A stretch of 64,000 nt of DNA from NCBI GenBank assembly GCA_963815195.1, contig CAWFGE010000015.1, forward strand, positions 256,001-320,000. Direction: 5' to 3'. The notes under the pieces are model-generated. The model was not told where the DNA came from. It searched no databases and saw nothing but the letters and a program-made list of their open reading frames with translations. Positions 8,548 through 40,179 of this stretch are shown one piece after another; the stretch's first letter is position 1; each line of letters starts with the position of its first letter. Source of the stretch: an uncultured Planctomycetaceae bacterium. GTDB taxonomy: Bacteria; Planctomycetota; Planctomycetia; Planctomycetales; Planctomycetaceae. Made by a program: the position numbers and the translations under genes.

Positions 8548-8576
8548 ACCGAACCCACCCAGGAAAAGATTTCCCA

Positions 8577-13284: not shown

Positions 13285-13301
13285 AGGGACATCAATGTCC
13301 C
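13284..13301. promoter_or_regulatory. Inverted repeat, candidate operator upstream of the xis/primase operon
   Basis: agggaca-tcaa-tgtccct, flanked by further GACA/TGTC half-sites. Confidence 0.4.
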
Positions 13302-13369
13302 TCTGACTGTCGGCATTCCTCCATAGACTCCGAGTGTGGTTTTCACTGAAGTCTCTGGAGGATTTTTTT

Positions 13370-13534
13370 ATGGCTGATGACTTATTAGAGCGGATTCCCC
13401 GCCCCGAGGAAATCAAACGGGAATTGGCCCCCTATTTGCGGGCCGTCGATTTGCTCAAAAAGCTGTTGAAGCTTGCCGAATATCGCGACCGCATGGAAGG
13501 AAATCGGGAGCGAAAAGGGGGGTCAAATGATTGA
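13370..13534 (+). CDS. Small hypothetical protein
   Basis: ggagga RBS before ATG; overlaps the next gene's start. Confidence 0.6.
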   Translation: MADDLLERIPRPEEIKRELAPYLRAVDLLKKLLKLAEYRDRMEGNRERKGGSND

Positions 13535-13754
13535 GCCTCTTCTCCTCGACAAGCTGGAAACGGCCCGGCGGCTGGGCATTAGCGTGCGCGGCCTTGACCG
13601 ACTCATCCGCGATCCTGATAACCCGCTTCCCTACATTCCGGTTGGGCGACTCATTAAATTCCGGCCGGCCGACGTACAGCGGTGGTTAGAGGGGAAGGTG
13701 ACGACCGCGCATCCGCCGCGGCAGGTATTGAAAAGCAAAGGGGGTGCCGAGTGA
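13527..13754 (+). CDS. Excisionase/AlpA-like HTH_17 DNA-binding protein
   Basis: LLDKLETARRLGISVRGLDRLI...LPYIPVGRLIKFRPADVQRWLE. Confidence 0.85.
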   Translation: MIEPLLLDKLETARRLGISVRGLDRLIRDPDNPLPYIPVGRLIKFRPADVQRWLEGKVTTAHPPRQVLKSKGGAE

Positions 13755-16294: not shown

Positions 16295-16584
16295 CTCTCC
16301 CGCAATTGTTGGCCGAATTGGCCCGGTTGGGGGTGCGGTTGGAGGCCGATGGGGAGCGGTTGCGGTACGCTCCCCGCGCGGCCCTGACTCCCGAATTGGC
16401 CGAGCCGCTGCGGGAGCACAAGCCCGCGTTGTTGGCCTATCTGCGGACCGGGAAAATCATCTTCGACGCCCAAACCGCAACCGCGGCCGATGTGCGGGCG
16501 GCCCTCGACTTTTTCAATCTGTCTCGCATCGGGAATTCCGATGTTGTACTCTCACAGAATCAGGAACCTTTTCAGGAAAGGTAA
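16291..16584 (+). CDS. TubC N-terminal docking-domain-like small protein
   Basis: LLAELARLGVRLEADGERLRYAP--ALTPEL---LREHKPALLAYL. Confidence 0.7.
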   Translation: MTLPQLLAELARLGVRLEADGERLRYAPRAALTPELAEPLREHKPALLAYLRTGKIIFDAQTATAADVRAALDFFNLSRIGNSDVVLSQNQEPFQER

Positions 16585-16592
16585 ATCCCACA

Positions 16593-17954
16593 ATGGCAAG
16601 CATCACGAAGCAGCCCAACGGCCGGCGGACGATTCAGTTTACTGGTCCCGACGGTCGGCGGTTTTCCATCCGCCTGGGAAAAGTCACTCAGAGATTGGCC
16701 GAGCAAGTGAAGTTCCGGGTGGAACAACTCTTGGCTCCGAAGTTGGCTGGTCAAGCCCTCGATGCCGATACCGCCCGTTGGCTGGGCGAGATTGACGATT
16801 CTCTACATTCCAAGTTGGCCAAGGTGGGTTTGGTCGAATCCCGCGAACAAACGGCGGTGCAGGCCCTTGGGGCATTCCTTGAAGATTATGTGACCCGGCG
16901 AATCGACGTGAAGCCCGCAACCCAGGAAGTTTGGCGGCAAGTGATTCTGAATCTGACGAATCATTTTGGATACGATCGCGATTTGGCGAGCATCAATGAA
17001 GGCCATGCCGACGATTTCAAAATGTTCCTCATTTCTGAAAAACTGGCCCCCACCACAATTCACAAGCGGCTGCAATTCGCCCGGATGTTTTTCCGAGCGG
17101 CCAAAAAGCGAAAACTCATCTCAGAGAATCCATTTGCGGAAACGTCCGCCCCGGCGGGATCCTCATCAGCCCGGCAGCATTTCATCACGTTGGAGGACAC
17201 GGAGAAACTGTTATCGGTCGCGAATCCGACATGGCGAACGATCATCGGCCTCTGTCGGTTCGGTGGCCTACGCTGTCCCTCTGAAGTGCTTTCGCTCCGA
17301 TGGGAGGATGTGTTGTGGGATTCTCAGAAAATCGTGGTGACCTCGCCGAAGACAGAACACCACGCCGGCAAGGAAAACCGAATCATCCCGCTATTCCCCG
17401 AATTGTTGCCGATCCTGTTGGAAGCCTCCGAACTGGCCGACGATGGTGCGGAATACGTTGTCGGTGGAAATTATCGGGAAGCGGCCCAAGGCCCGTCAGG
17501 CTGGCGAAACAGCAATCTCCGAACGCAATTCGGGCGGATCGTGAAACGGGCGGGATTGTCCCCCTGGCCGCGGCTGTTTCACAATCTCCGCGCATCCCGC
17601 GAAACAGAATTGGTCAAGGAACATCCGATTCACGTGGTCACAAAGTGGCTGGGGAACACGCCCACGATCGCAACCAAGCATTATTTGCAAGTGACGGATG
17701 CCGACTTCGAGAGGGCAACCAGCCGGGAATCAAAAAGCGGTGCAAAATCCGGTGCATCATCTGCACCGCCTGGGGAAAAAGCGGTGCAAAATCCGGTGCA
17801 GACAGTGTACGCCACGTCTCGGCAAAAATCGTCTGAGTTGTTCCAACCCGATGGGAACTCAACAGTTCTGCCGAGTCTTGGCGAATCGTGCCGAGCAATG
17901 ACTGTACAAAAAAGCGGAGAGAGGGGGATTCTCATTAGGACTTGTCGTAAGTGA
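16593..17954 (+). CDS. int: Tyrosine recombinase/integrase; 3' end runs through the right att core
   Basis: GGLRCPSE (R), SPKTE (K), FHNLRAS (HxxR), WLGNT, KHYLQ (Y). Confidence 0.93.
   Translation: MASITKQPNGRRTIQFTGPDGRRFSIRLGKVTQRLAEQVKFRVEQLLAPKLAGQALDADTARWLGEIDDSLHSKLAKVGLVESREQTAVQALGAFLEDYVTRRIDVKPATQEVWRQVILNLTNHFGYDRDLASINEGHADDFKMFLISEKLAPTTIHKRLQFARMFFRAAKKRKLISENPFAETSAPAGSSSARQHFITLEDTEKLLSVANPTWRTIIGLCRFGGLRCPSEVLSLRWEDVLWDSQKIVVTSPKTEHHAGKENRIIPLFPELLPILLEASELADDGAEYVVGGNYREAAQGPSGWRNSNLRTQFGRIVKRAGLSPWPRLFHNLRASRETELVKEHPIHVVTKWLGNTPTIATKHYLQVTDADFERATSRESKSGAKSGASSAPPGEKAVQNPVQTVYATSRQKSSELFQPDGNSTVLPSLGESCRAMTVQKSGERGILIRTCRK
17737..17800 (+). repeat. Two further arm-type 20-mers with an inverted partial copy between them
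   Basis: gcggtgcaaaatccggtgca at 17737 and 17781; tgcaccgcctggggaa (17762-17777) is the reverse complement of 4766-4781. Confidence 0.75.
17910..17931 (-). repeat. att core, right copy (tRNA-Ser 3'-end-like fragment)
   Basis: aaaagcggagagagggggattc, direct repeat of 4707-4728. Confidence 0.8.
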
Positions 17955-18124
17955 TTGTCAAATCAGCACTTCCGGTTGCAACTCCTTGAGACTCTTGGAT
18001 TTCCGGTTTGTCATTTGAGTTCATCTGTAGTCAGGGTTTCTCAGGAATAGTCATTCGGATTGGCACATTGTGCCAATCCGAAATTTGGCTTCGGTGCCTT
18101 CATCAGACCATGGAGGTACTGAAC

Positions 18125-20407
18125 ATGGTGATTGATACTGGGCCTTTTTTTCAAGGCCGCAGAAGACGCAAGCACGGATTGCGAGGAGCGATTTATGCTC
18201 GCTATTCCACCCGCTTCCAGCATTCGATTGATGACCAAGTCCGCGAGGACCGCGAGTGGGCCGACCGCAATGGAATCGAGGTGGTCCGAGTTTTTACGGA
18301 TAAGGCCGAGAAAGGACGCAGCACACGGCGGAAGGGACTCAAGGCGTTACAGCAGGCGTTGGAAAACGACGAGATTGATGTCGTGATCGTTTTCACCACG
18401 AACCGGTTGTATCGCAAGATGTACCAGTCGCTGATGTTTGTGGAAGAAGAAATCGTCGACCGTGGCAAACGCTGCGTGTTTGTGCGGTCGGGGATCGATA
18501 CGGCCGATTCGGACGATTGGCGGCAACGGCTCCAACTTCATGCCCTAATTGATGAATTTCTGGTGCAGACCATTGCCAAACACGTGCATGCCGCTCACGA
18601 GGGCTTGCTCTTGCAAATTCGCGTGTTCGGCACGCTCACCTTTGGTTATACGGGAGAAGAAATTCCCGGCGTCACCACGCGGTTAGGACGCCCGGCTCGC
18701 CGGCTGATCATCGATCCGGAAACCAAAAAATGGGTCAAGAAGATCTTTCGCTGGTTTACGCAGTTCGAGTTGAGCTTGGCGGAAATCATTCGTCGCCTCA
18801 ATGCCAAAGGAGCTCCGTTGCCTCCGCGATCCACAACCAAGCGTTGGACTCGTTTAGCGGTCCGCGGAGTGCTCACCAATGCCCGTTACATTGGCTGTTG
18901 GGCCTACGGTTCCACGAAAGCTGTTTGGCTCAACAAAAAGTCTTACAGCCGCCAAGTGCCGCGGGACGCCCCTCTTCGCGAAATTACAATCGAAGATTTG
19001 CGCATCATCGATGATGTGACTTGGGCTAAAGCTCAAGAGCGTTTGCACAATTTGCAGCAAAACGCGGGTCGACACCCCAAGGATGGGGACCGGAAGTCCC
19101 GGCCTCGGGTTCTGAACAATCTGATCTATTGTGAAAAACACCATGAGAAGGCACTTCACGTGGGTAACGCCTACGGCAAATACATGTTTTGCAGTGTTTG
19201 CCGGGATTCCGCGGAACGGTTCCTATTTTCTCAACTTCCCCGAAAGTTGGCTTTGGAACTGATATGCGACCGATTGGCGGCGTTGATCCGCGAGGACGAA
19301 GACCTTATCCAAAAATGTATCACCGCCGCGCAAGAAACCGTGGAGGAATTTGAGCGACCCGATCCGAGTCGGCTTGCCGATCTTAACCGGCAACTCGTGC
19401 GTTTGAACGGGAACATCCAGTTTATCCTGGATGCTCCCGGTGAAACTGATGAAGACCAAGACGAAAACCACAAACGTCTTACCGCCCTGCGTCGCGAACG
19501 AGCGACGGTTCAACGCGAGATTGCCGAGCAGGAGGAACTGGCCCAACGCCCGCTCGATATTCCGAATCCAGACGAAATTCGCGAGCAGTTGGACCAGTTT
19601 GCCGAGATTCTCCAGCGGGCCGCCGAGAGCGACGATCCGGAAGAACTCGCGGCCGCAAGACAGATCATCCGCTTGATCACAGGCGGACGAATCATCGCTT
19701 CCCAATGTGGGGAGCGAAAACAGAAGCGAGGCTGGGTGCGGTTGCGGTTTTCCGTCAATCTCCTTCGCCTCATCAGCATTCCGAATGATGTTTCGTCGAA
19801 CGGCGAACTGGAAGTTGAGATTGACGTTCTGCCGCCGGACACGACCGAACACGAATCGGAGCGGGTGAAGAAGCTTTATGATGCCGGATTGGAGATTCGG
19901 GAAATCGCGAATCAAACCGGTTGGCATCGGAATCGCGTGACCAAACTACTCAAATATTGGTTTGAATCGCGCGGGCTCGAAATGCCGAACAACCGCGCCC
20001 GGCGGCATCAGTTGCCAAAAAAGCAAGAGGATCTTCCGGTCTACCAACAGATTGCCGATGAAGTGCATTCGTTGTGGTTCGACGGGCTGTCGGATTCCGA
20101 AATGGGCCGCCGGTTTGGGTGCAGTGATACCACCGTGCAAAAGGCTTTTGTTTGGTGGCACACGTCCCGGAATCTGCCGGTTCCGAACAAGGAAAGCCGC
20201 CGTCAAGCTTTGCGGGAACGGGTGAAACGGCTTTCTGACCGGAGGGTCCCTCTTAAGAAGATTGCGAAAGACGTGGGCGTTTCCGACGTCACGGTCCGCA
20301 AGTTGTTGAAGGAATGGTATGCCGACCAAGGGCTTTCCATGCCGGACGGTCGGACGACGCGACACCAGCCGCCCAAGCCGGGGGACAACACCTCCACAAT
20401 GGCATAG
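18125..20407 (+). CDS. Large serine recombinase with C-terminal tandem HTH extension (start uncertain)
   Basis: AIYARYST (catalytic Ser), SIDDQ, RKGL, NRLYR, FGY, L-NARYIG, RIIDDVTW--AQ, zinc-ribbon, coiled coil, three HTH-like repeats. Confidence 0.92.
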   Translation: MVIDTGPFFQGRRRRKHGLRGAIYARYSTRFQHSIDDQVREDREWADRNGIEVVRVFTDKAEKGRSTRRKGLKALQQALENDEIDVVIVFTTNRLYRKMYQSLMFVEEEIVDRGKRCVFVRSGIDTADSDDWRQRLQLHALIDEFLVQTIAKHVHAAHEGLLLQIRVFGTLTFGYTGEEIPGVTTRLGRPARRLIIDPETKKWVKKIFRWFTQFELSLAEIIRRLNAKGAPLPPRSTTKRWTRLAVRGVLTNARYIGCWAYGSTKAVWLNKKSYSRQVPRDAPLREITIEDLRIIDDVTWAKAQERLHNLQQNAGRHPKDGDRKSRPRVLNNLIYCEKHHEKALHVGNAYGKYMFCSVCRDSAERFLFSQLPRKLALELICDRLAALIREDEDLIQKCITAAQETVEEFERPDPSRLADLNRQLVRLNGNIQFILDAPGETDEDQDENHKRLTALRRERATVQREIAEQEELAQRPLDIPNPDEIREQLDQFAEILQRAAESDDPEELAAARQIIRLITGGRIIASQCGERKQKRGWVRLRFSVNLLRLISIPNDVSSNGELEVEIDVLPPDTTEHESERVKKLYDAGLEIREIANQTGWHRNRVTKLLKYWFESRGLEMPNNRARRHQLPKKQEDLPVYQQIADEVHSLWFDGLSDSEMGRRFGCSDTTVQKAFVWWHTSRNLPVPNKESRRQALRERVKRLSDRRVPLKKIAKDVGVSDVTVRKLLKEWYADQGLSMPDGRTTRHQPPKPGDNTSTMA

Positions 20408-20570: not shown

Positions 20571-21392
20571 ATGACAAGTCTCACGCCTTCCGCCCGCACG
20601 ACTTCCGAAAGGGATCCAACGGTCTCGACATCGCACAATAGAACACCCTCAGCCGCCGTGTTGAGCTATACCACCCGAGGTGCGGTAACGAAACCGTTCG
20701 TGGAAATCGAAAACCTCATATGGCTTGTGCTGCATCAGGATGATCGTCGCGAGATATCTGAACTTCGTTTGGCGGGTTACACCGGTGGCCCTGTCCCTTG
20801 GGGCGTCGGTTGGGGCGGTGCCGAGCGAATGCTGTTCGAGAAGAACCTGCATTTGCAGCCCCAATTTGGTGCACGCGGTCGCCGTTTGAATCTGCGGCAG
20901 GCAAATGTTGTTCGACATGCGCGCCGCATGAAGCGTATCCTCCGACTTCGCCCCAACGCCCAAAAAGTTGCAATCCGAGAACGAATCCAACTCCCGCGTT
21001 TGTGGGCCGCCTTCGATAAAGCGATGGCTGAAACCATCACAGGGGACGGACCCGAGTTTTCTGGAATGTGTCATCTCACGGGCCAATCGCCATCCGAGCT
21101 TTTGGTTTCCTCGCAGCGAACCATTGGGAATCTCATTGCGTTTCCGCTGGATTGGGTCAGTCATGCCTGGGAAAAGATTGTCCAAATCTACGCCGATCTC
21201 GAACGATTTCCACGTTATCAAGTCGTTCCTTTCGGTAATACGGGAGCATCCCTGAGGGGTTACCGTGGCGCTTGCGAGTTCGACTTCTACGAAACTCGGT
21301 TTGCTACTCCTTCCACCAAACCGTTCGTCTCCATTGAAGAAGGCGCTCGAAACACTTCTAACGAAGAGGTTTGCGAAATCACCCTCACCTAA
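20571..21392 (+). CDS. Hypothetical protein (273 aa)
   Basis: Open frame with RBS-like aaaggga before ATG; no family recognised. Confidence 0.6.
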   Translation: MTSLTPSARTTSERDPTVSTSHNRTPSAAVLSYTTRGAVTKPFVEIENLIWLVLHQDDRREISELRLAGYTGGPVPWGVGWGGAERMLFEKNLHLQPQFGARGRRLNLRQANVVRHARRMKRILRLRPNAQKVAIRERIQLPRLWAAFDKAMAETITGDGPEFSGMCHLTGQSPSELLVSSQRTIGNLIAFPLDWVSHAWEKIVQIYADLERFPRYQVVPFGNTGASLRGYRGACEFDFYETRFATPSTKPFVSIEEGARNTSNEEVCEITLT

Positions 21393-21576
21393 ATTCAGGC
21401 CAAAAAGGTGGCATTATATAAGGGGAATGCTTACCTCTTGGCGAGCGGTCCATTCACATTTTCGGCTCGGCGATTTTCCAGTCATTTGGCTGGTGTCGCC
21501 GAGCTTTTTTTCGTTTCACCGAAAGGAGATCAGATATGCCGAACAAACCAACGCTGTCGGTGGTAAGCCTGAGAGA

Positions 21577-22296
21577 ATGCCGGTTGATGCGCGCCATCAA
21601 TGTCACCGAGGAAGGAAACCGATCATCGTGCGAGGATTGACACCATCAGCAAATTTACACGACGAGTCTAAAGCGGTTGCAACGCACGGAAAGCCGTTAC
21701 TGGTGTTTCTGGAAGGAACGCACGATATTGCTTGTCTCAAACAATTCAGCCGGATGGTGAATGCAACCGATCCCACATTCGCCGATTTGAGTGAATGGGA
21801 ACGAAATGGCCAGATCGTGTTTCTGCCGGTGGGTGGGAGCAACCTTAAAACTTGGACAAATCGGCTGCGGCATCTGGGCCATAAAGAATTTCATCTCTAC
21901 GACAGAGAAGACCGTTTCATTGCCGAAGACCGCGCCCGAATCGTGGCGGCCATCAATCGACGATCCGACTGCTTTGCGGTGTTAACCCAAAGGCGGGCCC
22001 TGGAAAATTACATCCATCCGAAGGTTGTCGCGCAGGCGTTGGGGATTGATGTCCAATTTGGCGATGGGGATGATGTCCCGGAAGTCGTCGCCAAAGAGTT
22101 ACTAAGGCAAGCCAACGGCCCGGCTTGGGAAGACTTATCCCCGCGAGGTCGAAAGCGACTGAAAGACCGAGGCAAGAAACGATTGAACAATGAGGCGGTT
22201 GGCCTCATGACCTACGAGCTACTCAGGGATTGGGATCCGCGAGGAGAAGTCATCGGCTGGATTGAGGCCATTAGACGCTTGGTCATTAACAAATAA
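21577..22296 (+). CDS. Stand-alone TOPRIM domain, OLD-nuclease-like (start uncertain)
   Basis: VFLEGTHD, FLPVGG, LYDRE, RALENYIHP match OLD-family TOPRIM motifs; no ATPase domain. Confidence 0.7.
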   Translation: MPVDARHQCHRGRKPIIVRGLTPSANLHDESKAVATHGKPLLVFLEGTHDIACLKQFSRMVNATDPTFADLSEWERNGQIVFLPVGGSNLKTWTNRLRHLGHKEFHLYDREDRFIAEDRARIVAAINRRSDCFAVLTQRRALENYIHPKVVAQALGIDVQFGDGDDVPEVVAKELLRQANGPAWEDLSPRGRKRLKDRGKKRLNNEAVGLMTYELLRDWDPRGEVIGWIEAIRRLVINK

Positions 22297-22335
22297 TAAA
22301 TCCATTCATCGAGCACAGAGAGGAGAAGAGATTTT

Positions 22336-22704
22336 ATGTCGCACATCGTAACGATCTTGACCGAAGTCCGTGACCAAGCCGCCGTCGAAGCGGCTTGCCA
22401 TCGACTTAAATTACCCGTTCCAACCCACCGCATTGTTCAGCTCTTTAGCGGTTCGGCAACCGGGTTGGCGGTGGAACTTCCAGATTGGCGGTATCCGCTC
22501 GTCTGCGATTTGCCAAAAGGCGAACTGCATTACGACAATTTCAACGAACGCTGGGGCGAAAAACGACATCTGGACAGTTTTCTGCAAGCCTATGCGATCG
22601 AGCGGACTCGCATCGAATGCCATCGCCAAGGATATACCATCACCGAGCAGCCTCTCGAAGACGGTTCCGTCAAACTCAGTGTGAATGTTGGGGGGACGCT
22701 ATGA
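22336..22704 (+). CDS. DUF1257 (Ycf35-like) protein
   Basis: MSHIVTILTEVRD--A---AC-RL ... FLQAYA-E----E----GY-ITEQ-LEDGSVKLSV. Confidence 0.8.
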   Translation: MSHIVTILTEVRDQAAVEAACHRLKLPVPTHRIVQLFSGSATGLAVELPDWRYPLVCDLPKGELHYDNFNERWGEKRHLDSFLQAYAIERTRIECHRQGYTITEQPLEDGSVKLSVNVGGTL

Positions 22705-22892
22705 AAACAATTGAGATTATCGTCTCACCGGAGGGGCAAACGCGGCTCGAAACCAAAGGCTTTTCCGGGCAAGAATGTCAACAGGCAAGTCGGTTTCTCG
22801 AAAAAGCCTTGGGCCAAACGGCAAAGGAACAACTGAAACCCGAGTTTTATCAAATCGAACGCACGACGGAGCAACAAATCGAAAACGAATAG
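22701..22892 (+). CDS. DUF2997 small protein
   Basis: MKTIEIIVSPEGQTRLETKGFSGQECQQASRFLEKALG...KPEFYQ; ATGA overlap with DUF1257 gene. Confidence 0.8.
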   Translation: MKTIEIIVSPEGQTRLETKGFSGQECQQASRFLEKALGQTAKEQLKPEFYQIERTTEQQIENE

Positions 22893-22914
22893 TTGTTGCT
22901 TCCGACACTTTACC

Positions 22915-22965
22915 AGCCCTTGGTTTTCCGTCTTCTGTAAGGAGGGAAAACCAAGGGCTTTTTTT
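22915..22965 (+). terminator. Strong stem-loop plus U-tract inside the gene cluster
   Basis: agcccttggttttcc ... ggaaaaccaagggct-tttttt (15-bp stem). Confidence 0.7.
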
Positions 22966-22988
22966 CGTTTCTGAATCAGGAGTTTTCT

Positions 22989-24485
22989 ATGTCGCTTTCT
23001 GAAGAACTGCAGGAGCATATCGCAGCCTGTTTTACAGGGCTCTGGATTGAGACCGCCGAGCGCGAGGATGCGCTATTGGAGATTTCTCTCCTTTGCCGTC
23101 AACACGATTGGAACTTGGCCGTGTGGGATGTGGAGCAAGGGTTTCAATGTGCTGGCGAATCGCATTCGGAATCTCAAGCCGGCACAGCGGACCCCTTGGC
23201 CGCAATTCGCACGCTCAACGCTCTGGCAACACCGACGGGGTCCGCTCTGTTGGTTCTCCCCGATTTTCACCGGTTCTTGAATTCTGCCGAGATTGTGCAA
23301 GCCTTACGGCGGCAAATCGTTCAAGGCAAGCAGAACCGAACCTTTGTGATTATCCTCTCTCCGGTCGTTCAAATTCCTGTTGAGCTCGAAACATTGTTCT
23401 TGGTCCTGCACCACGAACGTCCCAACCGGGAGCAGTTAGCAGAGATCGCCCAAGGCATTGCAACCGAGGCGGGGGAACTGCCCGAAGGGGAAGCCCTCGA
23501 CCGGGTCTTGGATGCCGCAGCCGGATTGACCCGCTACGAAGCAGAAGGGGCGTTTTCCCTTTCTTTGGTTCGCGAAGGGGCTATCGGTCCCGAAGCGATT
23601 TGGCAGTTGAAATCCCAGACCTTTCAGAAGGCGGGATTGCTGCAGCTCTATCGCGGACGCGAAACCTTTTCGGACCTGGGCGGATTGGAAACTCTGAAGA
23701 ATTTTTGTTTGCGGGCCATGCGTCAGCAAGGCAACCCCGATCCGCTCAAGCGTCCCAAAGGCGTGATGCTGCTTTCGCCGCCCGGTTGTGGGAAAAGCAG
23801 TTTTGCGAAAAGCCTCGGCCATGAGACGGGGCGACCCACAATTATTCTGGACGTGGGCCGACTCTATGGGGGCATCGTGGGCGAAACCGAGAAGAATGTT
23901 CGGCAGGCGTTTCAAATGATTGATGCCATGCAACCCGCCGTGGTAATGCTGGACGAAGTCGAAAAAGCGTTGTCTGGTGTGGGCGGATCGGGCCGCAGCG
24001 ATTCCGGTGTTTCCTCGCGGTTGTTTGGAAATTTCTTAACGTGGCTTAACGATCACGAAAGCGACACCTTCGTGATCTGCACTTGCAACGACATCTCGTC
24101 TTTACCAGCCGAGTTCTCCAGGGCCGGTCGCTTTGACGGCCTATTCTTCATTGACCTCCCCAATGCGGAAGAACGCAACGCGATCTGGGCGATTTGCTTG
24201 CGGACGTTTTCCCTTGATCCCGCTCAGCCCAAGCCCAAGGACGATTTATTTACCGGCGCTGAGATTCACGCCTGTTGTCGCTTGGCCGCCTTGTTGGATG
24301 TGCCATTAGTTGAAGCCGCAACGAACGTCGTCCCCATTGCGAAGACCGCGGCTGAATCGATTGAAAAGCTCAGGCAATGGGCCAGCGGCCGCTGTCTCTC
24401 GGCTAGTCAGCCGGGACTTTATGAGTATCAAAGTGGGTCCCCAAAGAAGCGGCGGCAGATCCCGCGCGATCCGTCTGCGAATTGA
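22989..24485 (+). CDS. AAA+ ATPase (Ycf46-like: degenerate N-terminal module plus active AAA module)
   Basis: DLGGLETLK, SPPGCGKS (Walker A), VMLDEVEK (Walker B), RAGRFD (Arg finger), FTGAEI. Confidence 0.92.
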   Translation: MSLSEELQEHIAACFTGLWIETAEREDALLEISLLCRQHDWNLAVWDVEQGFQCAGESHSESQAGTADPLAAIRTLNALATPTGSALLVLPDFHRFLNSAEIVQALRRQIVQGKQNRTFVIILSPVVQIPVELETLFLVLHHERPNREQLAEIAQGIATEAGELPEGEALDRVLDAAAGLTRYEAEGAFSLSLVREGAIGPEAIWQLKSQTFQKAGLLQLYRGRETFSDLGGLETLKNFCLRAMRQQGNPDPLKRPKGVMLLSPPGCGKSSFAKSLGHETGRPTIILDVGRLYGGIVGETEKNVRQAFQMIDAMQPAVVMLDEVEKALSGVGGSGRSDSGVSSRLFGNFLTWLNDHESDTFVICTCNDISSLPAEFSRAGRFDGLFFIDLPNAEERNAIWAICLRTFSLDPAQPKPKDDLFTGAEIHACCRLAALLDVPLVEAATNVVPIAKTAAESIEKLRQWASGRCLSASQPGLYEYQSGSPKKRRQIPRDPSAN

Positions 24486-24517
24486 GCAGTTCACATTGCC
24501 CTTCACTCTTTCCTGAA

Positions 24518-25873
24518 CTGGACTTTTGCAAAATCAGGTTAATCCCAATTTGGCGATGATATGGTCATAGCTTTGCGATTTCTCTGTGGCTTGTTGGATG
24601 GCCCAGGCCAGTGTGGTCCGCAGGGTCTCTCCAAGCATGGCGCGGCAGGCTTCGCCGATGGTCGTCAGCCGAGAGAGTGCCCAATCTTTCGCATGGTTCT
24701 GCTGGAGTTGGCTCACGAGCAAACTGTACGCCAGCATGACCAAATACATGTGCCTGGTCTGGCCCTGGCCATTGCGCAGCTGACAGTCTCCCATGCCCAG
24801 CTCTTGCTTGCCATCCCGATGATAGGTCTCCGTGCCTGTCCAGCGATGTCGATAGACTTTGAGGATCCGCGTCACTTCCCAGCGCACCCGATTGGTCACC
24901 AGAATCTTTTTTGGCGTTTTGTCCCGTCGCTTGTCCCAGAGGATCACGATCCGCACTTTATGATTCACTTCCGGAATGCGAATCGTGCAGGTGAAATACC
25001 ATTGCCGTCTTGTCGCCGCGGCGAAGTTCCTTGCGGCTTTCTGGCTCGATCGTGGCCGCGAACTCCTCGGCCTTATATTGCCAGCCTTTGACCTCGATCT
25101 TGCGGTTGAATTTCAAGTCGCCCACGTAGCCCCGCGGCCGGTCGAACTTGTCCTTCTTCGATGGATGTGGTTCAGGTTCTCCGCGTTGGTGAAGTAACTG
25201 TCGAAGGTGAAATCGCCGGGGATGTTCCGCGCAGACCCAGTCGATCAACTCGCAGAACAACACCGTGTGGTTCTTGAACGTCTCGCCGGTGGCCTCGCAC
25301 TGGACGCGTTTTTTGAAGCGGCGAAACTCCAGCGGATAATGTTTGCCGCTCGGCGCAGACGTAGTTGACGAACAGATAATCGTGGGCGATCTTGTGGCGG
25401 CTCTCGGCGTGATCCCAGAACCAGCCCACATCCTTGATGAACTGGCCGTCGTGGTCGATCAGCACATCGTCGATGGCGATCACGCCCTGGTCGCTGTACT
25501 GGGTCGTCGCATCCTGTTGCAACAGTTCCAGCCGCCGTTCGTTGAGCGCCTTCTCATCCCAGTCGACTTCGGTGAGGAACCGGTTCAGACAGGATTGGTC
25601 CGTGGTTTCGGCAAACTCGCCGTTGATGCCGGTGATGGTTTTGTTGTGGGCCACCATCAATCCGGTGAGATACTCCGCAAAGTGCCGCCGTTGCGGTTCG
25701 CAGGAAAACAAGTCACCAAATTCTTCGACCGCGTCCAAAACGACTTGGGGGAACTCGACGATTCCTGGCATGCTCGCTACCTCCCTGGTCCGTGTGCGCC
25801 ATCCGAATTGACGTCAATTAGACACAAAATCGCCTATTTTTCCAGGGCGATCTAAAAGATTGCAAAAGTTTAG
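24518..25873 (-). mobile_element. IS701-family IS; transposase (24534-25771) frameshifted
   Basis: TIRs ctggacttttgcaa / ttgcaaaagtttag; 5-bp TSD CTGAA (24513-24517, 25874-25878); VIAIDD and RW--ETYHRDGKQELG motifs. Confidence 0.88.
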
Positions 25874-25912
25874 CTGAACACTATTTGATCCCTTTCAGAA
25901 AGGAACGATTTA

Positions 25913-26881
25913 ATGACGACAGCACTTGATGATCAGCAAATGGAACTCTCGGCCGAAGCGGCTCAACGTTTGCGGTCCAGCACCGCCGCGGTGCGTTTGA
26001 GTATCAAATGGCTGGGGACGCGGAAGACACTCACCCCCGGTCAACGAGCCGAGGCCGCGGAATCGTTTGGCGCGGAAGGTCAGTTTCTCTCCGCCGGGAA
26101 AAAACTCTTGGACGTGCGGCATTCCGCATTTCGGGCGGTGACGGCGATTCGCACCAAAGCCGTGGCCCATTGGAAGGCGGAGACTTTGCCCTTTCCGGAG
26201 CCGGGCTTGCGACTGATCCGCCAGAACCGCATTGCCGATTTCGATGCCCGCATGCGGGATTGGAGTGCGGAACTCGATGAGGCGGTCGAAAATCTCGACC
26301 AACACTACACCGAACTGAAGCAGGCGGCTGCTCAGCGATTGGGGCGGCTGTATAATCCCGCCGACTATCCCGAAAGCCTGACTGGAGCCTTTGAAATCAG
26401 TTGGGACTTCCCGAGCGTCGAGCCGCCGGACTATCTGCGGCGATTGCATCCCGAACTTTATGAACAAGAATGCCGCCGCGTGGCCAATCGGTTTGATGAG
26501 GCCTTGCAATTGGCCGAGCAGGCTTTCTTGGAGGAGTTGCACAAGTTGATCACTCATCTCACCGAACGTCTCTCGGGGGATGAGGACGGACAGCCGAAAG
26601 TTTTTCGCAATTCGGCCATCGAAAACCTGACGGAGTTCTTCACCCGCTTCGGTCAGCTCAATGTGCGTTCCAATGCCGAGTTGGATCGTCTTGTCGATCA
26701 AGCCCGGGAGATTGTGACGGGCGTCCAGCCGCAAAGTTTGCGTGACAACCACGTGCTCCGGCAAAGCGTGGCCCAGGAACTTGGCGAAGTGCAGACGGTT
26801 CTGGATGATTTGTTGGTGGACCGTCCCCGGCGGAATATCTTGCGCTCGCCCAAGAGCCAGCAGCCAACGGAGTCGGAATAA
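25913..26881 (+). CDS. DUF3150-like helical protein
   Basis: SAGKKLLD, TLPFPEPG-RL, LGRLYNPADYP, FRNSAIENL-EF; family call by resemblance only. Confidence 0.6.
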   Translation: MTTALDDQQMELSAEAAQRLRSSTAAVRLSIKWLGTRKTLTPGQRAEAAESFGAEGQFLSAGKKLLDVRHSAFRAVTAIRTKAVAHWKAETLPFPEPGLRLIRQNRIADFDARMRDWSAELDEAVENLDQHYTELKQAAAQRLGRLYNPADYPESLTGAFEISWDFPSVEPPDYLRRLHPELYEQECRRVANRFDEALQLAEQAFLEELHKLITHLTERLSGDEDGQPKVFRNSAIENLTEFFTRFGQLNVRSNAELDRLVDQAREIVTGVQPQSLRDNHVLRQSVAQELGEVQTVLDDLLVDRPRRNILRSPKSQQPTESE

Positions 26882-27157
26882 TGGATCTCCGCATCGAACC
26901 CGGCGGTTGCATTCGCACGATTTACAGCGAAGAGATCCCCTTACGAGCACTGGGCCGGTTGACCATCCGTCGCGGCAGCCACGTGGAACCTGATCAAAAC
27001 GGCTATTGGTTTGCTGATCTTGCTCCAGTGGACGGTCCACGATTGGGGCCGTTTACTCTTGCGAAGCGATGCTCTGGCTGCCGAACAACATTGGCTCGAA
27101 ACGCATTGGCTCACTCGACCATCAAACGAAGAAGGGTTTCCCAAAGCCGAATCATAG
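26881..27157 (+). CDS. Small hypothetical protein, frameshifted near 27060
   Basis: IRTIYSEEIPL--LG-L-IRRGSHVEPD--G-WFADL-PV-GP-LGPF then RSDALAAEQHWLETHWL in another frame. Confidence 0.6.
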
Positions 27158-27281
27158 TTGCCTTTCAATTAGGCGAAACTAAAAACGCAAGCACGATACA
27201 GCCTCGCGCTGTGCGAGGTGGTTATGTTTTTTCACATGACCGCCTCGCAAGGGGCGGTCACTATTCCAAGGAGACTGTCCT

Positions 27282-27563
27282 ATGCGTCTGCGGAAATGCG
27301 AGCGAAAGCCCTCGCAGGATTTGGTTCTTGCCGTGGCCTTGGCCACGGGGGAATCCATCCACTTGATTCACCAACGCGGCTTTCAACTTGTTGTCGAACC
27401 ACCCGAGCAACTGGAACAGCGACTGGGTCTCTCGTGCCCCGGTTGTGGTCAGGAAAACCTGCTCAGTGAGCGGGGACTTGAAGAACTGCCCGAGTGGGCC
27501 GAGTGTCCGCGTTGCGAAGCCGCTTATCCCTACCGCCACGAAGAAATCTACACCCTCGATTAA
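27282..27563 (+). CDS. Small zinc-ribbon protein
   Basis: CPGC ... CPRC; aaggag RBS. Confidence 0.65.
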   Translation: MRLRKCERKPSQDLVLAVALATGESIHLIHQRGFQLVVEPPEQLEQRLGLSCPGCGQENLLSERGLEELPEWAECPRCEAAYPYRHEEIYTLD

Positions 27564-27661
27564 CACATCCGAAGAACACCACTGCACCAACCATCGAATG
27601 CGTCCGCTTCCCAAGTGGGGAGCAATCCCTTTTCTTTCTCACGCTTGAGGAAATTTAAGCC

Positions 27662-27898
27662 ATGACACAGTCCCTGAACGTTCTCTACATCAACAATGAT
27701 GGAGCCGGATTCGCCGACTATTTGAATGTCGCTCCCGGCACGACCGTCCAAGCCTTTTTCGCCGAGCGAATTCCCGGTGGTCGGGCTCAGGATTATTTGA
27801 TCCGCGTGAACCGCTTGCCCGTCGCCTCCGACTACGTCCTTCAAGATGGTGATCGCGTGACGATCACTCCCACGAAGATTGAGGGAGCCATTTCGTAG
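27662..27898 (+). CDS. Ubiquitin-like (MoaD/ThiS beta-grasp) protein with a short C-terminal extension after Gly
   Basis: 78 aa; [31 protein letters not shown]. Confidence 0.85.
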   Translation: [78 protein letters not shown]

Positions 27899-27984
27899 CG
27901 TTCTCGTCCCATTTGAAGTTGCAACGAGGCGAGGTCGCCGGGAAATGAACCGGTGGCCTCGCTTCTTTATCCCGAAAGGAAAAC

Positions 27985-29001
27985 ATGTTGGATTCAAAAC
28001 AACGCTCGGCCCTAAAAATGGCAGAGCGAATTCATGAGCAACTGTCACAAGGCCATTCTGCGCAGACCCAGAAATTGCAGTTGCCCGAAGACAACTGGGA
28101 CGAATGCCAACGGTTGTTTCGGCGAATGGAAATCGCACGATCGCGCGGTTGGAATCTCGCCGTCCGCAAACTTTTGCCACAACTCCCCTTGGCCCTGCGA
28201 GCACTTCAACTGCGGTTGGAGCAACTCACGCCCACAATCCAACTCAAGGCGGTTCCATCGCTGCGGGCCATTTACGAAGAAGTCCTGGCTTTGGAAGCCG
28301 AGTTTCCTCGCGTCACCTGCGACCTACGAAAAGGCACGTTGGCGGTCGAAACGGAATCGCTTGTTTTGGAAGGTGTCGCACTTGGCAGCTTTGAGATTCG
28401 GCTGGAGGTGAAGAATCGGCCGAATGGTTTCACGTATGAAGTCCTCGCACTGGAGCCTTATCCTTCGGCCTCGAATTCATCCGTGACGCACCCGCATGTG
28501 CAGGATGGGCAACTCTGCGAGGGTGAGGGGCGAGCGGCGATTCGCAGCGCCTTGGATTCGGGTCGATTGTGCGATTTCTTCGTCATCGTGTCGCAAATCC
28601 TTCGCACCTATAACCCGTCCAGCGCCTATGTCGAATTGGACAACTGGAGCGGCGAACCCTGCGAGGATTGCGGAGGGATTACCGATGATGAGGACCGTTG
28701 GAATTGCGAAGGGTGTGAGCGTCTCCTCTGTAGCGAATGCTACGTGAGTTGCTCGGATTGTGGGGATGCCCATTGCAGCGATTGCACCAATTCCTGCGAA
28801 GGTTGCGATGAGTCGCTTTGTCGAAAATGTCAGCATTCGTGTGAGTCGTGTGGAAACATCGTTTGTCATTCCTGTCTGGAAGAGGATGACGTCTGCAAAT
28901 CCTGCCACGCCGCTTCGGCGGTAGAAAGTACAAGTCATGCCCATGAGACAACCCAAGAACCTCCGCTCGAAACGGTCCCCGCAGAAATTCCCTCGCCTTG
29001 A
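27985..29001 (+). CDS. Prokaryotic E2/UBC-like conjugating enzyme fused to a Cys-rich (10x CxxC) tail
   Basis: [15 protein letters not shown] mirrors the E2 HPN...C active-site motif; ILRTYNP; ten CxxC pairs. Confidence 0.7.
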
Positions 29002-29670
29002 GCGAGCCCCGACGCTTCGCTTTTCTCCTTATGCTTGGGCGAAACTTCTTTTCCTTCGCGATCAGGGTGAAACCGAAATCGGGGGATTCGGAATCACGGC
29101 GGAATATGATCCGCTTTTAGTGGAAGACATCGTGCTTGTTCTGCAAACCTGCACGGCGGTCAGCGTTCGCTTTGACGATGCCGCCGTCGCGGATTTTTAT
29201 GATGATCAAGTGGATCGCGGCTTTGCGCCCGACCGATTTTCCCGAGTTTGGGTTCATACGCACCCCGGAAATTCCGCCCAGCCCAGCGGAACAGATGAGG
29301 AGACGTTCGAGCGAGTATTTGGCCGTTGCGACTGGTCGGTCATGTTCATCCTGGCCTGCGGCGGAGATTCTTATGCTCGCCTGCGTCTCGGCGATTGGTC
29401 CCACAGCGGAGATGGTTATTCCAATCGAAGTGGACTACGACGCCTCGTTTCCCGCTTCCGACATCGCCGCCTGGGAACAGGAATACGAGAACTGTGTGCG
29501 GTCCATCGAAGGTTGGAGAGAAACGAACTTCAACGAAGGCAAAACGAGAACAAAGGGCCGCCGTCCCACCAGCCTTGCCAAACCCGTGGTGGGACGATGC
29601 GAGCTTTGATCTCATGGCTTCCGATCTGTCTTATTCTGAGGAGGATTTTCACGATTATGAATCGTTTTGA
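28943..29670 (+). CDS. JAB/MPN+ (JAMM) metalloprotease, candidate deubiquitinase; frameshifted in the 3' half
   Basis: ETEIGGFG and [16 protein letters not shown] (HxH-x7-S-x2-D). Confidence 0.88.
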
Positions 29671-30306
29671 ACGGCAAAGCGAACTCGTTCCCCAAGTTCG
29701 CCTCCAAGAAACCTCCGCAACCGTAATTGGAGTCGGCGCGGTCGGGCGGCAAGTGGCATTGGGACTCGCGGCCATGGGTGTCAGGCGGTTGCAATTGATG
29801 GACTTCGATGACGTGGAACCCACGAATGTCACCACCCAAGGCTATTTTAGCCAGACCGATTTGGGGCAACCGAAAGTCCTCGCCACGCGGCAGGCTATCC
29901 AGTTGATTGATCCCGATATTGTTGTCACGCCAATCCAGGATCGCTTTCGCGCGAAGTTCGATACGGGGGAAGCGATCTTTTGCTGTGTGGACAGCATCAC
30001 GGCCCGCGCTGCGATCTGGCGGAGTTTGAAAGACCGCTGCCGCTTTTGGGCCGATGGGCGAATGCTCGGTGAAGTCTTGCGGGTATTGACCACCACCAGC
30101 GACCCTCGATCGGCAACATTATGAAACGACACTATTTTCCCAGAGCGGAAGCACAAACCGGACGTTGCACTTCTCGCAGCACGATTTACACCGCGGGCAT
30201 TTGTGCCGGTTTGATGCTGCATCAATTCTCACGCTGGCTCCGTGACTTGCCGACCGACTGCGATATCTCGTTCAACCTATTGGCTGGCGAATTCGTTTTG
30301 AATTGA
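29657..30306 (+). CDS. E1-like ThiF adenylyltransferase; frameshifted near 30120
   Basis: [45 protein letters not shown], distal GRCT Cys. Confidence 0.9.
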
Positions 30307-30350
30307 ACCCGAAACACCCAGACCCAAATCAAATTGAGGAGGTACTTCCT

Positions 30351-30524
30351 ATGGGGGCTCGTCAAAAACTTAATAACGTCTATGTCACAATCGCGTTGAT
30401 CGTCGCCGCCTTGGCGGGATTGTTGACGCAATCCACGTTTGTGTTCTGCATCGCCTTGGCGTTGCTCATCATCACCAACATTGACTCGGGAGCCATCCGC
30501 CCCAACAAACGCCGGCGTCGTTAA
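30351..30524 (+). CDS. Small two-helix membrane protein
   Basis: gaggagg RBS; MGARQKLN, two hydrophobic segments, basic tail. Confidence 0.65.
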   Translation: MGARQKLNNVYVTIALIVAALAGLLTQSTFVFCIALALLIITNIDSGAIRPNKRRRR

Positions 30525-30562
30525 TTTGGGGGATTTTCCCTTTTTGATTCTAAATGCATGCG

Positions 30563-30600
30563 ACCTGCCCGCCCTTCGGGGCGGGCAGGTTTTGGCTTTT
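30563..30600 (+). terminator. Intrinsic terminator ending the cluster
   Basis: acctgcccgccc-ttcg-gggcgggcaggt-ttt. Confidence 0.8.
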
Positions 30601-32690: not shown

Positions 32691-35600
32691 CTACTCTTCA
32701 AACTCCAGTTCGATTTCTGCTTCCTCTTCCTCTTCCACTTCGACTGCGGATTGCAGTTCCAGGACGGCGGTGCGCAGTGGTTCGTAGATGGGGATTTCTT
32801 GTCCCACAATCTCGAAAGTCACCGCCAGAGTGTATGTGGCTGCCGCCTCCGGATCGCGACTCCAGCCCTGATGCCCGCGGACGGCAATGCAAAGATCATC
32901 GGGAAGAGCATTCGAGGCGACGAAAGCCCAATCTTTCTGTAGCGTGCCGACGCCCCGACGGACACCGGGCAGATGGCCCCAGTTGCTTCGGGATTCGATC
33001 CTCCAGCCCAACGCGCCACTACCTTCATCCATCTGTTCATCGTCAGATTTCAGCGCGCGTGTCAGGAAGGCTTCGAGAGATTCGCCCTTGCGATTGCTCA
33101 TCCAATCCAGCCACGTCGCCAAGTAGCCGCGATGCGTCCTTCGTGTACGTCTTGGAGCGGCGGCGTAGGATAACGTGACATCGATGCGAATCGTGAAGTC
33201 ATCGGCGGGACGGCGAAGCTCTGCGGGAATCGGAACCTGATAGATGTGGCAGTCACCTGGCCCCAACGTCCGCTCCTTGTGAGTGATGAACGTCGTCCGA
33301 AAGTCGGTGTTGGTGGTTGCCCGTTCCGTATCGGGGATGCCGTAACCAAGACGACGGAGGACATCGACTTGTTCTTCTCGGGAGAGCGCGGCGGCCCATG
33401 CCGGCCAGTGAGCCGATTGCACGATCAGCGCGCGGTAGAGGAGACAAGATTCCTCGGGAAGCAACGCCTGCAAGCGGGCCGCGATTTTCGTCACCTTGGG
33501 GGCGGCGAACGAGGTGCCGACCTCGTCTCGGTCGAAGGCTGGGCCGCCGTGAAGCGTCGAGCGGATCAGCTCAGGGTAAAAGTCGCGACCGTCTTGGGGA
33601 TTATCGACAGTTGGAGAGTCTCCGGCGGTGTGAAGAGAGTCTCCACCGTATTCGACGACATCGGGCTTGATGGATTCCCAGATACCAAGTCCTGCCCGAC
33701 TGAAGGCGGAGGGGTAGCCCTTTTCAGATGCAAAACTCCTCCAGTGGGCGGTTTCCAAGGCACCGTAGTTGGACAGCGCCAGTTTAGTGTGTTTTGCCTG
33801 GAAATCATGGGGTTTTGTCTTTTCGGGGTCACGTGACGCAGGATTTGATTTTGTCGACGTCGATTCCGAGGGAGAGATACAGCTGGATTCGCGTTTTGGT
33901 ATGTGAAATTTTCGACTGAACGGTGCGGTCTTGATAGTGCCGCTGGCTCTTTAAGTCCTTCTCGTAGGCTTCGTCACGAAACGGAGCGGGCAGGTGATGG
34001 TGCATCAGGTAACTGTTGAGGCTCCGGCGAACCTGTTCGACGGTGAGTTCTCCCGTCTGGTGGGTGTCCAGGCTCTGACGAATCCGGCTGCATAACAGGG
34101 AACTCAACGCGGTCACGTAGTAGTGACGATGAATGCTCCGCCAGCCACGAACTTGGAAGTGATCCATGCCCAACTCGTCTTTGGCCACGCGGAAGCAGGC
34201 TTCGATCGTCCAACGACGGAAGGCGACCCGCAGCAACCAACGCAACGTCACGCCGCCCCGCCCGACCACCTGGTTGGATAGAAAAAACTTGATTTCCCCA
34301 GTTCGCACATTCCGGGCCACAATCAAGGTCTGTTGTCGGCTGGGGAGTTTGGCTTCGGTCTTCCGCCAGACTTTGAGCCATTTGACCTCCCAGACCTCGG
34401 GACCCTTTTGCGTGTCCTTGATCCGATACCGCTGCCAAGTTTGCTTTTGAAACTTGGAAGAGAACTTGATCAAGTTGCGGACTTCGCAGGCGGGCGGCGG
34501 GCACCAGGCGCGGGGCGTCTTCTTCCCCCGCCTCGTCTTCGACTTCCGCGGTTTTGTCTTCCGCGACTTCGTTCGACTTCGCTTTGGTTTTGTGGTCCAA
34601 ACCCGCGTATCACAGGGGATTTCCGCGACATAGGCTTGCTTTCGATCCTCGAGTCCATCCAGGAACTTGCTGTCTCGGCCATACAGTTCATCGCAGGTCC
34701 ATACCGCCACGCGGATGCCATTCTGTAAAGCCCGGTCAATCAAGCCCAACGCGATTTGCGGCTTCGTCTGAAACGCGATGTCCTTGGGAATGGGATTTTT
34801 CTCTCGCCGCGCTTGGTCATCAGCCCAGTCTTCCGGCAGGTAAAGCTGACTGTCCAAAAGCGTGTGAAATCCGGGAGTCGAGTACGCCAGATGAACTCCC
34901 ACGGTGCAGTTATCGACCTTTCCCCGGTGGCCGTTGTACTGCCGGGCGGCCCCGGCGGTCTCCGAACCGCTCTTGCTGATCCCGGATTCATCCACGGTCC
35001 CAATCGCCTCCTCGTGGGCATGATCCCGGGCGAGGATCTGCTGACAGCGATCTCGCAATTTTTCCTCATCCCACTTGATCGATTCGAGAAACCGCTGTAG
35101 CGTTCGGGGAGGTTGGTTGAACTTCAACGCGATGGCCTCACAGTTCTTTCGTTTGACATCCGACAACTGACCCTTGACATAAACCCTGAACAACCGGCGT
35201 GCGGGCCAGCTTAAAAAGCAATCCGCAAACATCGCCAGAAACACTGTGAGCAGTCGACCGAGGTTCTTGATCTCTTCTAAAGTCATCATGGCGGTCCTCC
35301 GTGATCCATTTGGGTAAACTCACACGGAGGATCGCCTGATTTCATTCGTAACGGAAGGCTAAGCCGAGTACGGATTTAGAGAGTAAAGTGGCGCTGTCCA
35401 ATTAGGCAATGGAACCCACCGTGAGCGCTTGAAGGCTTTGGCTCGGATTGGCGATACGAGAGGCGTTTTCACCCAGATAGTCGGGATACGGTTTGCCGGC
35501 GGCAATCTGTTCAGCGATGCCGGACCGGGGAGCCGGACGCGAATTCTTCAAATTGCCTGCGCTCTGAATGATCAAGACATCATAATCGTGGCAAAGCAGA

Positions 35601-36955: not shown

Positions 36956-36958
36956 TGC

Positions 36959-37966: not shown

Positions 37967-38009
37967 TTTTGTGCCGCTCTCGATTTTGAATTGGCTCAAT
38001 GAATTTGGG

Positions 38010-40067: not shown

Positions 40068-40179
40068 GCTTTTTCACCTGGCAGTATGGACAGATTCTGG
40101 CTGGATGTCTACAGTGGGGGTTCCCGATTCCATTGTCCTTTCTTCCCGCTGATCTTTGAAATGCTGGGAGCTTTTCATG

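Follow-up and report, generated by a model that had tools for sequence, protein, structure and literature searches.

A gene block in which a ubiquitin-like (Ubl) cassette, Ubl-E2-JAB-E1, lies beside a five-gene backbone, DUF1257-DUF2997-AAA-DUF3150-like-orfB, was analysed in a stretch of 64,000 nucleotides from an uncultured Planctomycetaceae bacterium (GCA_963815195.1, contig CAWFGE010000015.1, positions 256,001–320,000), hereafter the window. The closest homologues of its genes bear planctomycete names. Comparison of homologous loci from genomes, metagenomes and phages revealed that the two modules are linked repeatedly, yet that each also occurs alone. We hold, at about even confidence, that two separable modules stand here in a run of early or accessory genes belonging to selfish elements: a functional pathway of Ubl conjugation, and an AAA+ unit independent of it that would share its location for the sake of co-expression.

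Linkage of the cassette and the backbone

An AAA-seeded search of 401 genomes, in which at most three candidates were scored per genome, yielded 36 close matches outside the source genome, five of which were too short. The 31 evaluable copies could be divided into 14 with a full cassette, one with a Ubl gene only and 16 with no Ubl, and a clamp-like gene was carried instead by 11 of these 16. The clamp-like tail gene corresponded to Atlas DNA_pol3_beta clusters (score 0.94) and often had a PD-(D/E)xK nuclease beside it. One locus with a partial E2 (L063) stood outside the counts, and an additional scan of genome contigs yielded two loci only. Weak 'E2' matches beside distant AAAs (L064–L066) were dropped as Cys-rich chance matches, and five loci (L067–L071) were rejected as members of the same cassette, being a different RING-type system.

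The alternative tail (L079–L098, L195, L243) consisted of a small protein, c3, a clamp-like protein of ~450 amino acids (aa), c50 and a PD-(D/E)xK nuclease. The first helices of c3 were HU-like (best PDB E 0.4, not significant); c3 occurred in most homologous loci and was undetected in the window. One locus, L243, carried the clamp-type tail and the Ubl cassette together.

Phylogenetic analysis of the AAA proteins (quick method, 61 rows), from which copies with a stop or shorter than 380 aa were left out and in which L082 received its clamp label from the nuclease tail alone, revealed that Ubl-linked and clamp-linked copies interleave, with no Ubl-specific clade. The Ubl label changed eight times over the tree, at least five of the changes being forced by starred branches, and one Ubl-linked AAA was separated from clamp-linked AAAs by no more than 0.04 changes per column.

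Among the best 80 of 527 Ubl-seeded metagenome loci, 18 cassette loci had at least 5 kb of upstream sequence; an AAA gene was present in three of them and none in the other 15. Many AAA-free metagenome cassette loci had HATPase and DUF2958 genes upstream instead.

The same optional pattern could be observed in phages. E1 or E2 was found near the AAA in five of the best 80 of 422 AAA-seeded phage loci. Among 27 phage loci of the close AAA clade (5 too short), the cassette occurred in none of the 22 with at least 5 kb downstream, and E1 was detected in 0/10 whole phage records with the closest AAA, while all four known carriers used as positive control were detected. The E1-seeded search gave 67 phage loci, 58 of them with E2 and JAB. 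After dereplication, 26 of 45 phage cassette loci had no nearby AAA. Two of ten cassette phage records without a near AAA had one ~20 kb away, and five of the six near-complete cassette phages without a near AAA had none anywhere in the genome. A terminase was present in 2/5 carrier phage records, and related AAAs are present in cultured phages.

The AAA-paired phage loci could be arranged in three lineages by gene order. In lineage I, the backbone precedes the cassette. Lineage II has the cassette, 2.4–8.6 kb of variable genes and then AAA-DUF3150-DUF1257-orfB-DUF2997, while lineage III has the cassette, two unknown genes, a ParB-like gene, AAA, a RecA-like gene, DUF2997, a radical SAM gene and DUF1257. 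The independent pairing events number about three.

Two further observations on phage Ubl genes were made. A set of 17 viral loci (L274–L290) contained JAB-E1-Ubl with E2 and AAA undetected, another type of phage-borne Ubl cassette, and phage contigs L187 and L188 (L313, L315) carried two different Ubl cassettes in tandem together with a di-Ubl.

An earlier note on this DNA had proposed that the whole block may form one multi-gene system. The Ubl-free close AAAs interleaved on the tree, the phages with the closest AAA and no E1, and the AAA-free cassette phages do not support an obligate system. The expected co-occurrence was confirmed in part, as the Ubl cassette and the AAA/DUF1257/DUF2997/DUF3150 genes recur together widely, across divergent AAA clades, without an obligate link.

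The Ubl-E2-JAB-E1 cassette

Residues G75 and A76 of the Ubl were invariant in 28 members, with tails of 0–30 aa after the Ala. ThiS was the sole Pfam match of the Ubl, in 26 of the 28 members (best E 6.9e-6); a putative beta-grasp assignment is based, at the sequence level, on this match and the invariant Gly, with no PDB sequence match. The Ubl family comprised 583 representatives (50% identity) at E ≤ 1e-10, including tandem di- and tri-Ubl forms, and the E2 homologues formed 430 clusters.

No Pfam E2 family, Prok-E2 included, was matched by any of 120 E2 members. Features of a UBC-fold E2, an HPN-like motif with a downstream Cys, could be recognised in H169-P170-H171 and C178, which are invariant among homologues. 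The E2 model (predicted local distance difference test score, pLDDT, 92.8) consisted of an N-terminal helical hairpin, a middle domain and Cys-rich repeats. Many Foldseek matches to UBC structures were obtained with the middle domain (probability up to 0.97, E 0.03–0.15), the wide Foldseek search with E2 having been filled by its coiled-coil matches. HHalign comparison with a Pfam UQ_con-positive E2 (95.5) also aligned the HPN motif and the catalytic Cys.

The E..HxH..S..D motif of JAB was kept in the consensus of 70 homologues. The E1 of ~220 aa had a late Cys that was invariant in 14/14 sequences, and no CxxC pairs in the consensus of 66. The four genes travel as a unit: JAB and E1 followed E2 in 30/30 genome loci, Ubl preceded E2 in 27/30, the remaining three beginning at a contig end, and E2 followed Ubl in 51/52 metagenome loci. 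Sequence and model show that all catalytic residues are conserved, and from the analogy with Bil we infer that the cassette is a genuine pathway of protein conjugation. On the same analogy, JAB would trim the pro-Ubl after the invariant Gly, and E1 would adenylate the Ubl, take it onto its conserved Cys and transfer it to Cys178 of E2. The target may be chosen by the Cys-rich repeats and helical hairpin of E2 itself, in place of an E3.

The AAA+ backbone module

DUF1257, DUF2997 and Ycf46-type AAA genes could be identified next to each other in the window. DUF1257 remained marginally below its cut-off, and the TOPRIM label was based on motifs and weak matches. The DUF3150-like protein had no direct Pfam match (PF11348); its label is transitive, through an HHalign match (probability 77.6, E 1.9e-5) to a Pfam-DUF3150 protein. 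Its model (pLDDT 80.6) gave no Foldseek match at E ≤ 0.001 and helical-bundle matches only. The five-gene backbone order was kept in planctomycete elements and in ~200-kb phages, of which the AAA was ~50% identical.

Assessment of the domain architecture of the AAA protein revealed a single Pfam AAA module (residues 259–389). The N-terminal 222 residues could not be aligned to the AAA half (HHalign probability 0.4), so that the earlier description of a two-module ATPase is unsupported; a degenerate first AAA module may be present in the N-terminal half. Pore loop 1 was non-aromatic in all 31 parsed planctomycete AAAs, Ubl-linked (16/16) and Ubl-free (15/15) alike, and its pattern was unparsed in 17/18 close-clade phage AAAs. 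The window-type loop, S-L-V, aligns with 'MWF' of p97 D2 and resembles the non-aromatic loop of p97 D1. A complex prediction for AAA and Ubl scored 0.00, which weighs neither way. A distant version of the module (L101:1509-9692 and L102:11554-17058) contained c50-like, PD-(D/E)xK, RadC-JAB, true DUF3150 and Ycf46-type AAA genes.

Proposed roles and alternative explanations

In the reading of two separable modules, the backbone would form an autonomous AAA+ remodelling unit that has small partner proteins and needs no Ubl. Placed side by side, both modules would be expressed at one stage, and their targets would probably be related and linked to DNA. Such targets are suggested because the alternative tail encodes clamp-like and nuclease proteins and the phage neighbours are ParB- and RecA-like. 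Because the cassette is also found in large phages, its most likely beneficiary is the element and not host immunity, through host take-over, counter-defence or competition between elements. In this reading, the AAA would not be a dedicated extractor of Ubl conjugates.

Several observations weigh against two independent modules. The two modules meet more often than carriage on the same elements would obviously require. In the E2-seeded search of the same genomes, AAA lay within 9 kb in 12/16 loci with at least 7 kb upstream, and a co-oriented Ycf46-type AAA lay within ~10 kb in 19/45 evaluable phage cassette loci (90% identity clusters; 12/37 at 70%). The AAAs of the three phage gene orders belong to three clades that are 25–36% identical to each other, and the spacing in lineage III is fixed at three genes and ~3.5 kb. 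The Ubl label was clustered on the AAA tree beyond all 500 shuffles, pore loop 1 was aromatic in 11/12 AAAs of lineage II (4/8 in lineage III), and the DNA-linked target is deduced from neighbour genes. Among 17 loci, distance correlation (Mantel) was higher for DUF3150-like/E1 (r 0.72) than for AAA/DUF3150-like (0.52) and AAA/E1 (0.36), correlations that kinship and proximity can explain as the loci are not independent. The clamp-like alignment, intended as a control for regional hitch-hiking, had no relative in viral contigs, leaving the phage linkage without a matched null.

The proximity in genome loci, the pairing of three AAA clades with one cassette family in three gene orders, and the aromatic loops of lineage II would also suit an alternative in which the AAA with DUF1257 and DUF2997, and the DUF3150-like protein as adaptor, is a Cdc48-like segregase or unfoldase for Ubl-tagged proteins, Ubl-free copies using another tag or target; p97/Cdc48 were moreover the closest PDB sequences to the AAA domain. 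We consider this unlikely, since each module was found alone in complete genomes, tails swap on near-identical AAAs, variable genes part the modules in lineage II, and the protein has one intact AAA module with a D1-like, non-aromatic pore loop in the window-type AAA. The segregase arm suggested in the earlier note was not supported. Somewhat less likely still is that one of the proteins encoded in the block (TOPRIM-like, orfA or DUF3150-like) is modified by the cassette and thereby armed or restrained, in the way in which CBASS Cap2/Cap3 treat their cyclase, with the AAA being incidental. For this it can be said that the TOPRIM-like gene was present in 6/14 cassette-bearing and 0/16 Ubl-free AAA loci (Fisher p 0.005, related loci not being independent), that all eight evaluable TOPRIM-like loci had the cassette, that orfA stood directly upstream of the Ubl gene in 20/20 homologous loci, and that DUF3150-like and E1 gave the highest Mantel value. 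In partial support of the earlier note, TOPRIM-like and orfA homologues were seen in cassette-bearing loci only. Neither gene is universal, however: TOPRIM-like occurred in 6/16 genome cassette loci, orfA in 0/16 genome and 20/71 metagenome loci, and neither was detected in large-phage cassette loci. The TOPRIM assignment is itself weak (PADLOC GajA E 0.01; best PDB E 0.33–0.86), and orfA had no match in Pfam, NCBIfam, PHROGs, PADLOC or Atlas.

A Bil-like anti-phage system of the host, located in a defence island and conjugating the Ubl to phage structural proteins, appears improbable. The gene order, the pro-Ubl tails and tandem Ubls are those of Bil, IetAS lies 2 kb downstream and a type I restriction-modification system upstream of the island; against this, the same cassette family is present on many phage records, and PADLOC recognised no BilA, BilB or BilC and a BilD restricted to the adenylation domain. 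A ThiS/ThiF-type sulfur-carrier or small-molecule pathway instead of protein conjugation is hardly to be expected: the ThiS match of the Ubl and the single-domain, ThiF-like E1 would agree with it, but the Ubl is followed almost without exception by an E2 whose active-site Cys is invariant, the loci read showed no genes of sulfur metabolism, and E1 scores far under the ThiF/MoeB cut-offs.

Comparison with characterised systems

The cassette shares with Bil (BilABCD, types I/II; Iyer 6C/CEHH) the order Ubl-E2-JAB-E1, the Gly with a trimmable tail, one to three Ubl domains and the lack of an E3; the accessible part of PMC10557695 describes the Ubl-E2-deubiquitinase (DUB)-E1 order, pro-Ubl tails and tandem Ubls of Bil. 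However, the Bil E1 is a multidomain IAD-AAD-CYS protein with structural Zn, whereas the E1 here is a single domain without an IAD or CYS domain or a Zn site. The E2 here also has a classical His-Pro-His...Cys with helical and Cys-rich extensions, and the cassette is phage-borne as well. No PADLOC match to BilA, BilB or BilC could be obtained for Ubl, E2 or JAB, JAB matching CBASS-type JAB models only, and the BilD hidden Markov model matched E1 over the adenylation domain only (E ~6e-6).

Bub (6E/DUF6527) has the same Ubl, E2, JAB and E1 components. According to the accessible part of bioRxiv 2024.11.21.623953, its E1 and E2 have no catalytic Cys, occur as fusions (BubAB/BubCD or BubBD) and depend on DUF6527. 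In contrast, the cassette here consists of four separate genes, the Cys of E1 and that of E2 are invariant, and the Pfam scan of the window gave no DUF6527.

The NCBIfam PRTRC families, which we take to be type 6d of Iyer 2006, were likewise compared. PRTRC_ThiF scored 25–37 bits for the two tabulated proteins against a cut-off of 144.75, and no other PRTRC family was matched. As far as the accessible text of PMC1779556 describes it, type 6d likewise has small genes for Ubl, JAB, E1 and E2 that are separate and located on mobile DNA. Its JAB includes a JAB-N domain, and the classical His is missing from its E2, whereas H169 and H171 of the E2 here are invariant. The words 'AAA' and 'Planctomyc' do not occur in the main text of that paper (PMC1779556).

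The RING operons of planctomycetes (E1-JAB-RING-E2; L067–L071) have an E2 with C-terminal Cys-rich repeats that aligns with the E2 here (HHalign 95.5). They differ in encoding Prok-RING_1 and FHA proteins and a UQ_con-positive E2, in gene order and in the lack of an AAA core. Such RING-containing operons were reportedly described by Burroughs in 2011. In L067, L069 and L071, the operon encodes E1, JAB, FHA and Prok-RING_1 proteins, a RING-trypsin fusion and a canonical E2 with Cys-rich repeats.

On the backbone side, the same three families are found in cyanobacteria and plastids, where Ycf46 occurs with Ycf35 (DUF1257) and DUF2997; the accessible texts describe a DUF2997-DUF1257-fed7 cluster (PMC4284462) and a stress-induced three-gene ycf46 operon (bioRxiv 2025.07.21.665879). 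The genes here differ in lying on mobile DNA with a DUF3150-like gene, orfB and swappable tails, and no Ubl link is mentioned in the accessible text of those two sources. Cdc48/p97 differ in having two modules against the one intact module here, which has a non-aromatic pore loop and no recognisable N-domain or Ubl-binding cofactor. The AAA of cluster O mycobacteriophages (Corndog gp96) is 33% identical, and the genes annotated up to 9 kb away include no Ubl cassette. The accessible part of PMC4351075 places gp96 outside the structural genes, in a region that also encodes a beta clamp and ParB-like proteins, and reports its detection in infected cells.

The cassette matches no tested Bil, Bub or 6d definition and apparently represents an undescribed family. 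No title or abstract in the literature searched described the cassette or its link to Ycf46/DUF1257/DUF2997/DUF3150, although Burroughs et al. 2011 (Mol Biosyst) or supplementary operon lists could include the family.

Gene order, integrated island and other copies

Open reading frame (ORF) and profile scans of the window revealed 13 plus-strand genes between the serine recombinase and the terminator, running from orfA to the small membrane protein in the order of Table 1. The earlier description of about 13 co-oriented genes interrupted once, by an intergenic IS701 element, was borne out, the element lying on the minus strand. As the same gene order recurs in other genomes, the arrangement is not due to chance.

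Table 1. Features of the gene block and its borders, in window coordinates
Feature	Position	Strand	Remarks
21-bp att repeat, island left edge	17911..17931		100% match to 3' end of tRNA-Ser GGA (ARAGORN)
Large serine recombinase	18122..20407	+	Resolvase E 8e-19, Recombinase E 4.8e-17
orfA, 273 aa, family unassigned	20571..21392	+	cassette-associated accessory gene
TOPRIM-like (OLD-type), stand-alone, optional	21577..22296	+	E-G-x-x-D, D-x-E/D and E-N-Y motifs; start codon uncertain
DUF1257 (Ycf35-like), backbone gene 1	22336..22704	+	22.0 bits, just below 22.2 cut-off; phrog_20456 E 4e-6; conserved position
DUF2997, backbone gene 2	22701..22892	+	E 1.8e-17; phrog_23133
Ycf46-type AAA+ ATPase, backbone gene 3	22989..24485	+	phrog_8638 E 9e-91; Walker A/B and Arg fingers
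IS701-type element, later insertion	24518-25873	-	DDE_5, 5-bp target duplication, frameshifted transposase; between AAA and DUF3150-like
DUF3150-like, backbone gene 4	25913..26881	+	very large conserved family, at least 5969 clusters among 8000 scored candidates
orfB, ~80 aa, backbone gene 5	26881..27157	+	frameshifted near 27060
Small Zn-ribbon protein, rare accessory	27282..27563	+	weak Zn-ribbon matches; homologues upstream of Ubl in L038, L051, L204
Ubl, pro-form	27662..27898	+	G75-A76, then short variable tail; ThiS-family match
E2	27985..29001	+	helical hairpin, predicted UBC fold with H-P-H and Cys178, C-terminal Cys-rich repeats
JAB peptidase	28937..29609	+	Prok-JAB E 7e-5; E...HxH...S..D motif
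ThiF-like E1, single domain	29657..30306	+	ThiF E 8e-24; late Cys
Small two-helix membrane protein	30351..30524	+	occurs with both tail types
Intrinsic terminator	30562..30591	+	13-bp stem and T tail; top-ranked site of terminator scan

The partner of the att repeat was located ~80 kb away (C15:353875-353895), adjoining a tRNA-Ser and a tyrosine integrase (Phage_integrase, L361:14523-15773), and the G+C content between them was mostly 53–56% (one 10-kb bin 59%) compared to ~60% in the flanks. The tRNA-Ser att repeats, the integrase and the low G+C content together indicate that the block forms one end of an integrated island of ~80 kb. A large serine recombinase also precedes the block in L034, L037, L038, L211 and L293. 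Over the window, the terminator scan gave 23 sites against 21.4 in shuffles, a total not above the shuffles, and the promoter scan gave three sites against 7.0 expected, which is uninformative. No conjugation or virion genes were found among the 22 island ORFs scanned.

The island also contains two RHS-repeat proteins (window 40156-45405; C15 ~326000-331300, equal to L360:7053-12263), both preceded by near-identical Ser-rich leaders, and leucine-rich repeat, Clp-like AAA and glycosyltransferase genes. The IetAS defence pair (IetA ATPase, IetS subtilase) occupies window 32691-38212 on the minus strand, ~2 kb downstream of the block, with IetS split by a DDE_5 (IS701-type) transposase (33829-35289). 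The type I restriction-modification genes were at window 6528-10022 (plus strand), HsdR being apparently split over two frames. To the left of att, a tandem second, satellite-like element (window 12628-17954, plus strand) carried an HTH_17 excisionase-like gene, a DUF3987 primase-like gene and a tyrosine integrase, the end of which overlaps the att repeat.

The block copy in this genome is damaged as assembled. A contig from another metagenome (run X2) joins 24513 to 25875 without the insertion element, thus representing the empty site. Besides orfB, JAB (near 29395) and E1 (~30105-30135) are frameshifted as assembled, while their homologues are whole. The frameshift in JAB falls after the catalytic motif, whereas that in E1 precedes the conserved Cys, so that E1 is cut off from this Cys in the present copy. 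In a background test, 4/27 loci were split over frames, one of them this E1, which is compatible with assembly error or decay. No sequencing run contained more than 0.20 of the words of the block, and no RNA run was listed for it. Partial copies of the block could be found at the ends of contigs C3, C10, C11 and C14 of the same genome. In C10:271-4916, a second DUF3150-like gene is interrupted by a ~2.4-kb insert with an ORF that, judged from its sequence, is putatively reverse-transcriptase-like. Ubl genes without a cassette were seen at the ends of C3 and C14, and a 91% copy of the leader of att and the large serine recombinase on C8:223430-223632.

Implications

Intact loci exist, for example L040, L037 and L034. 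In the accessible parts of their reports, the pathways of bacterial ubiquitination that have been characterised (CBASS, Bil, Bub) are presented as immunity of the host. The present cassette forms a large family in which the thioester residues are kept and the E2 has a Zn-repeat arm of its own. Its occurrence on large phages and islands points to Ubl tagging by selfish elements. It may further be imagined, with little confidence, that such elements encode a tag-and-extract system, in which the Ubl pathway, its E2 bearing E3-like Zn repeats, would mark proteins of the host or of rival elements and the Ycf46-type AAA+ with DUF1257, DUF2997 and DUF3150-like partners, recruited at least three times, would strip or unfold them. 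If true, this would be a bacterial and viral counterpart of ubiquitin-Cdc48 and would for the first time suggest by what logic the plastid orphans Ycf46 and Ycf35 obtain their substrates. The optional but recurrent pairing makes the role of the cyanobacterial and plastid Ycf46, Ycf35 and DUF2997 proteins testable.

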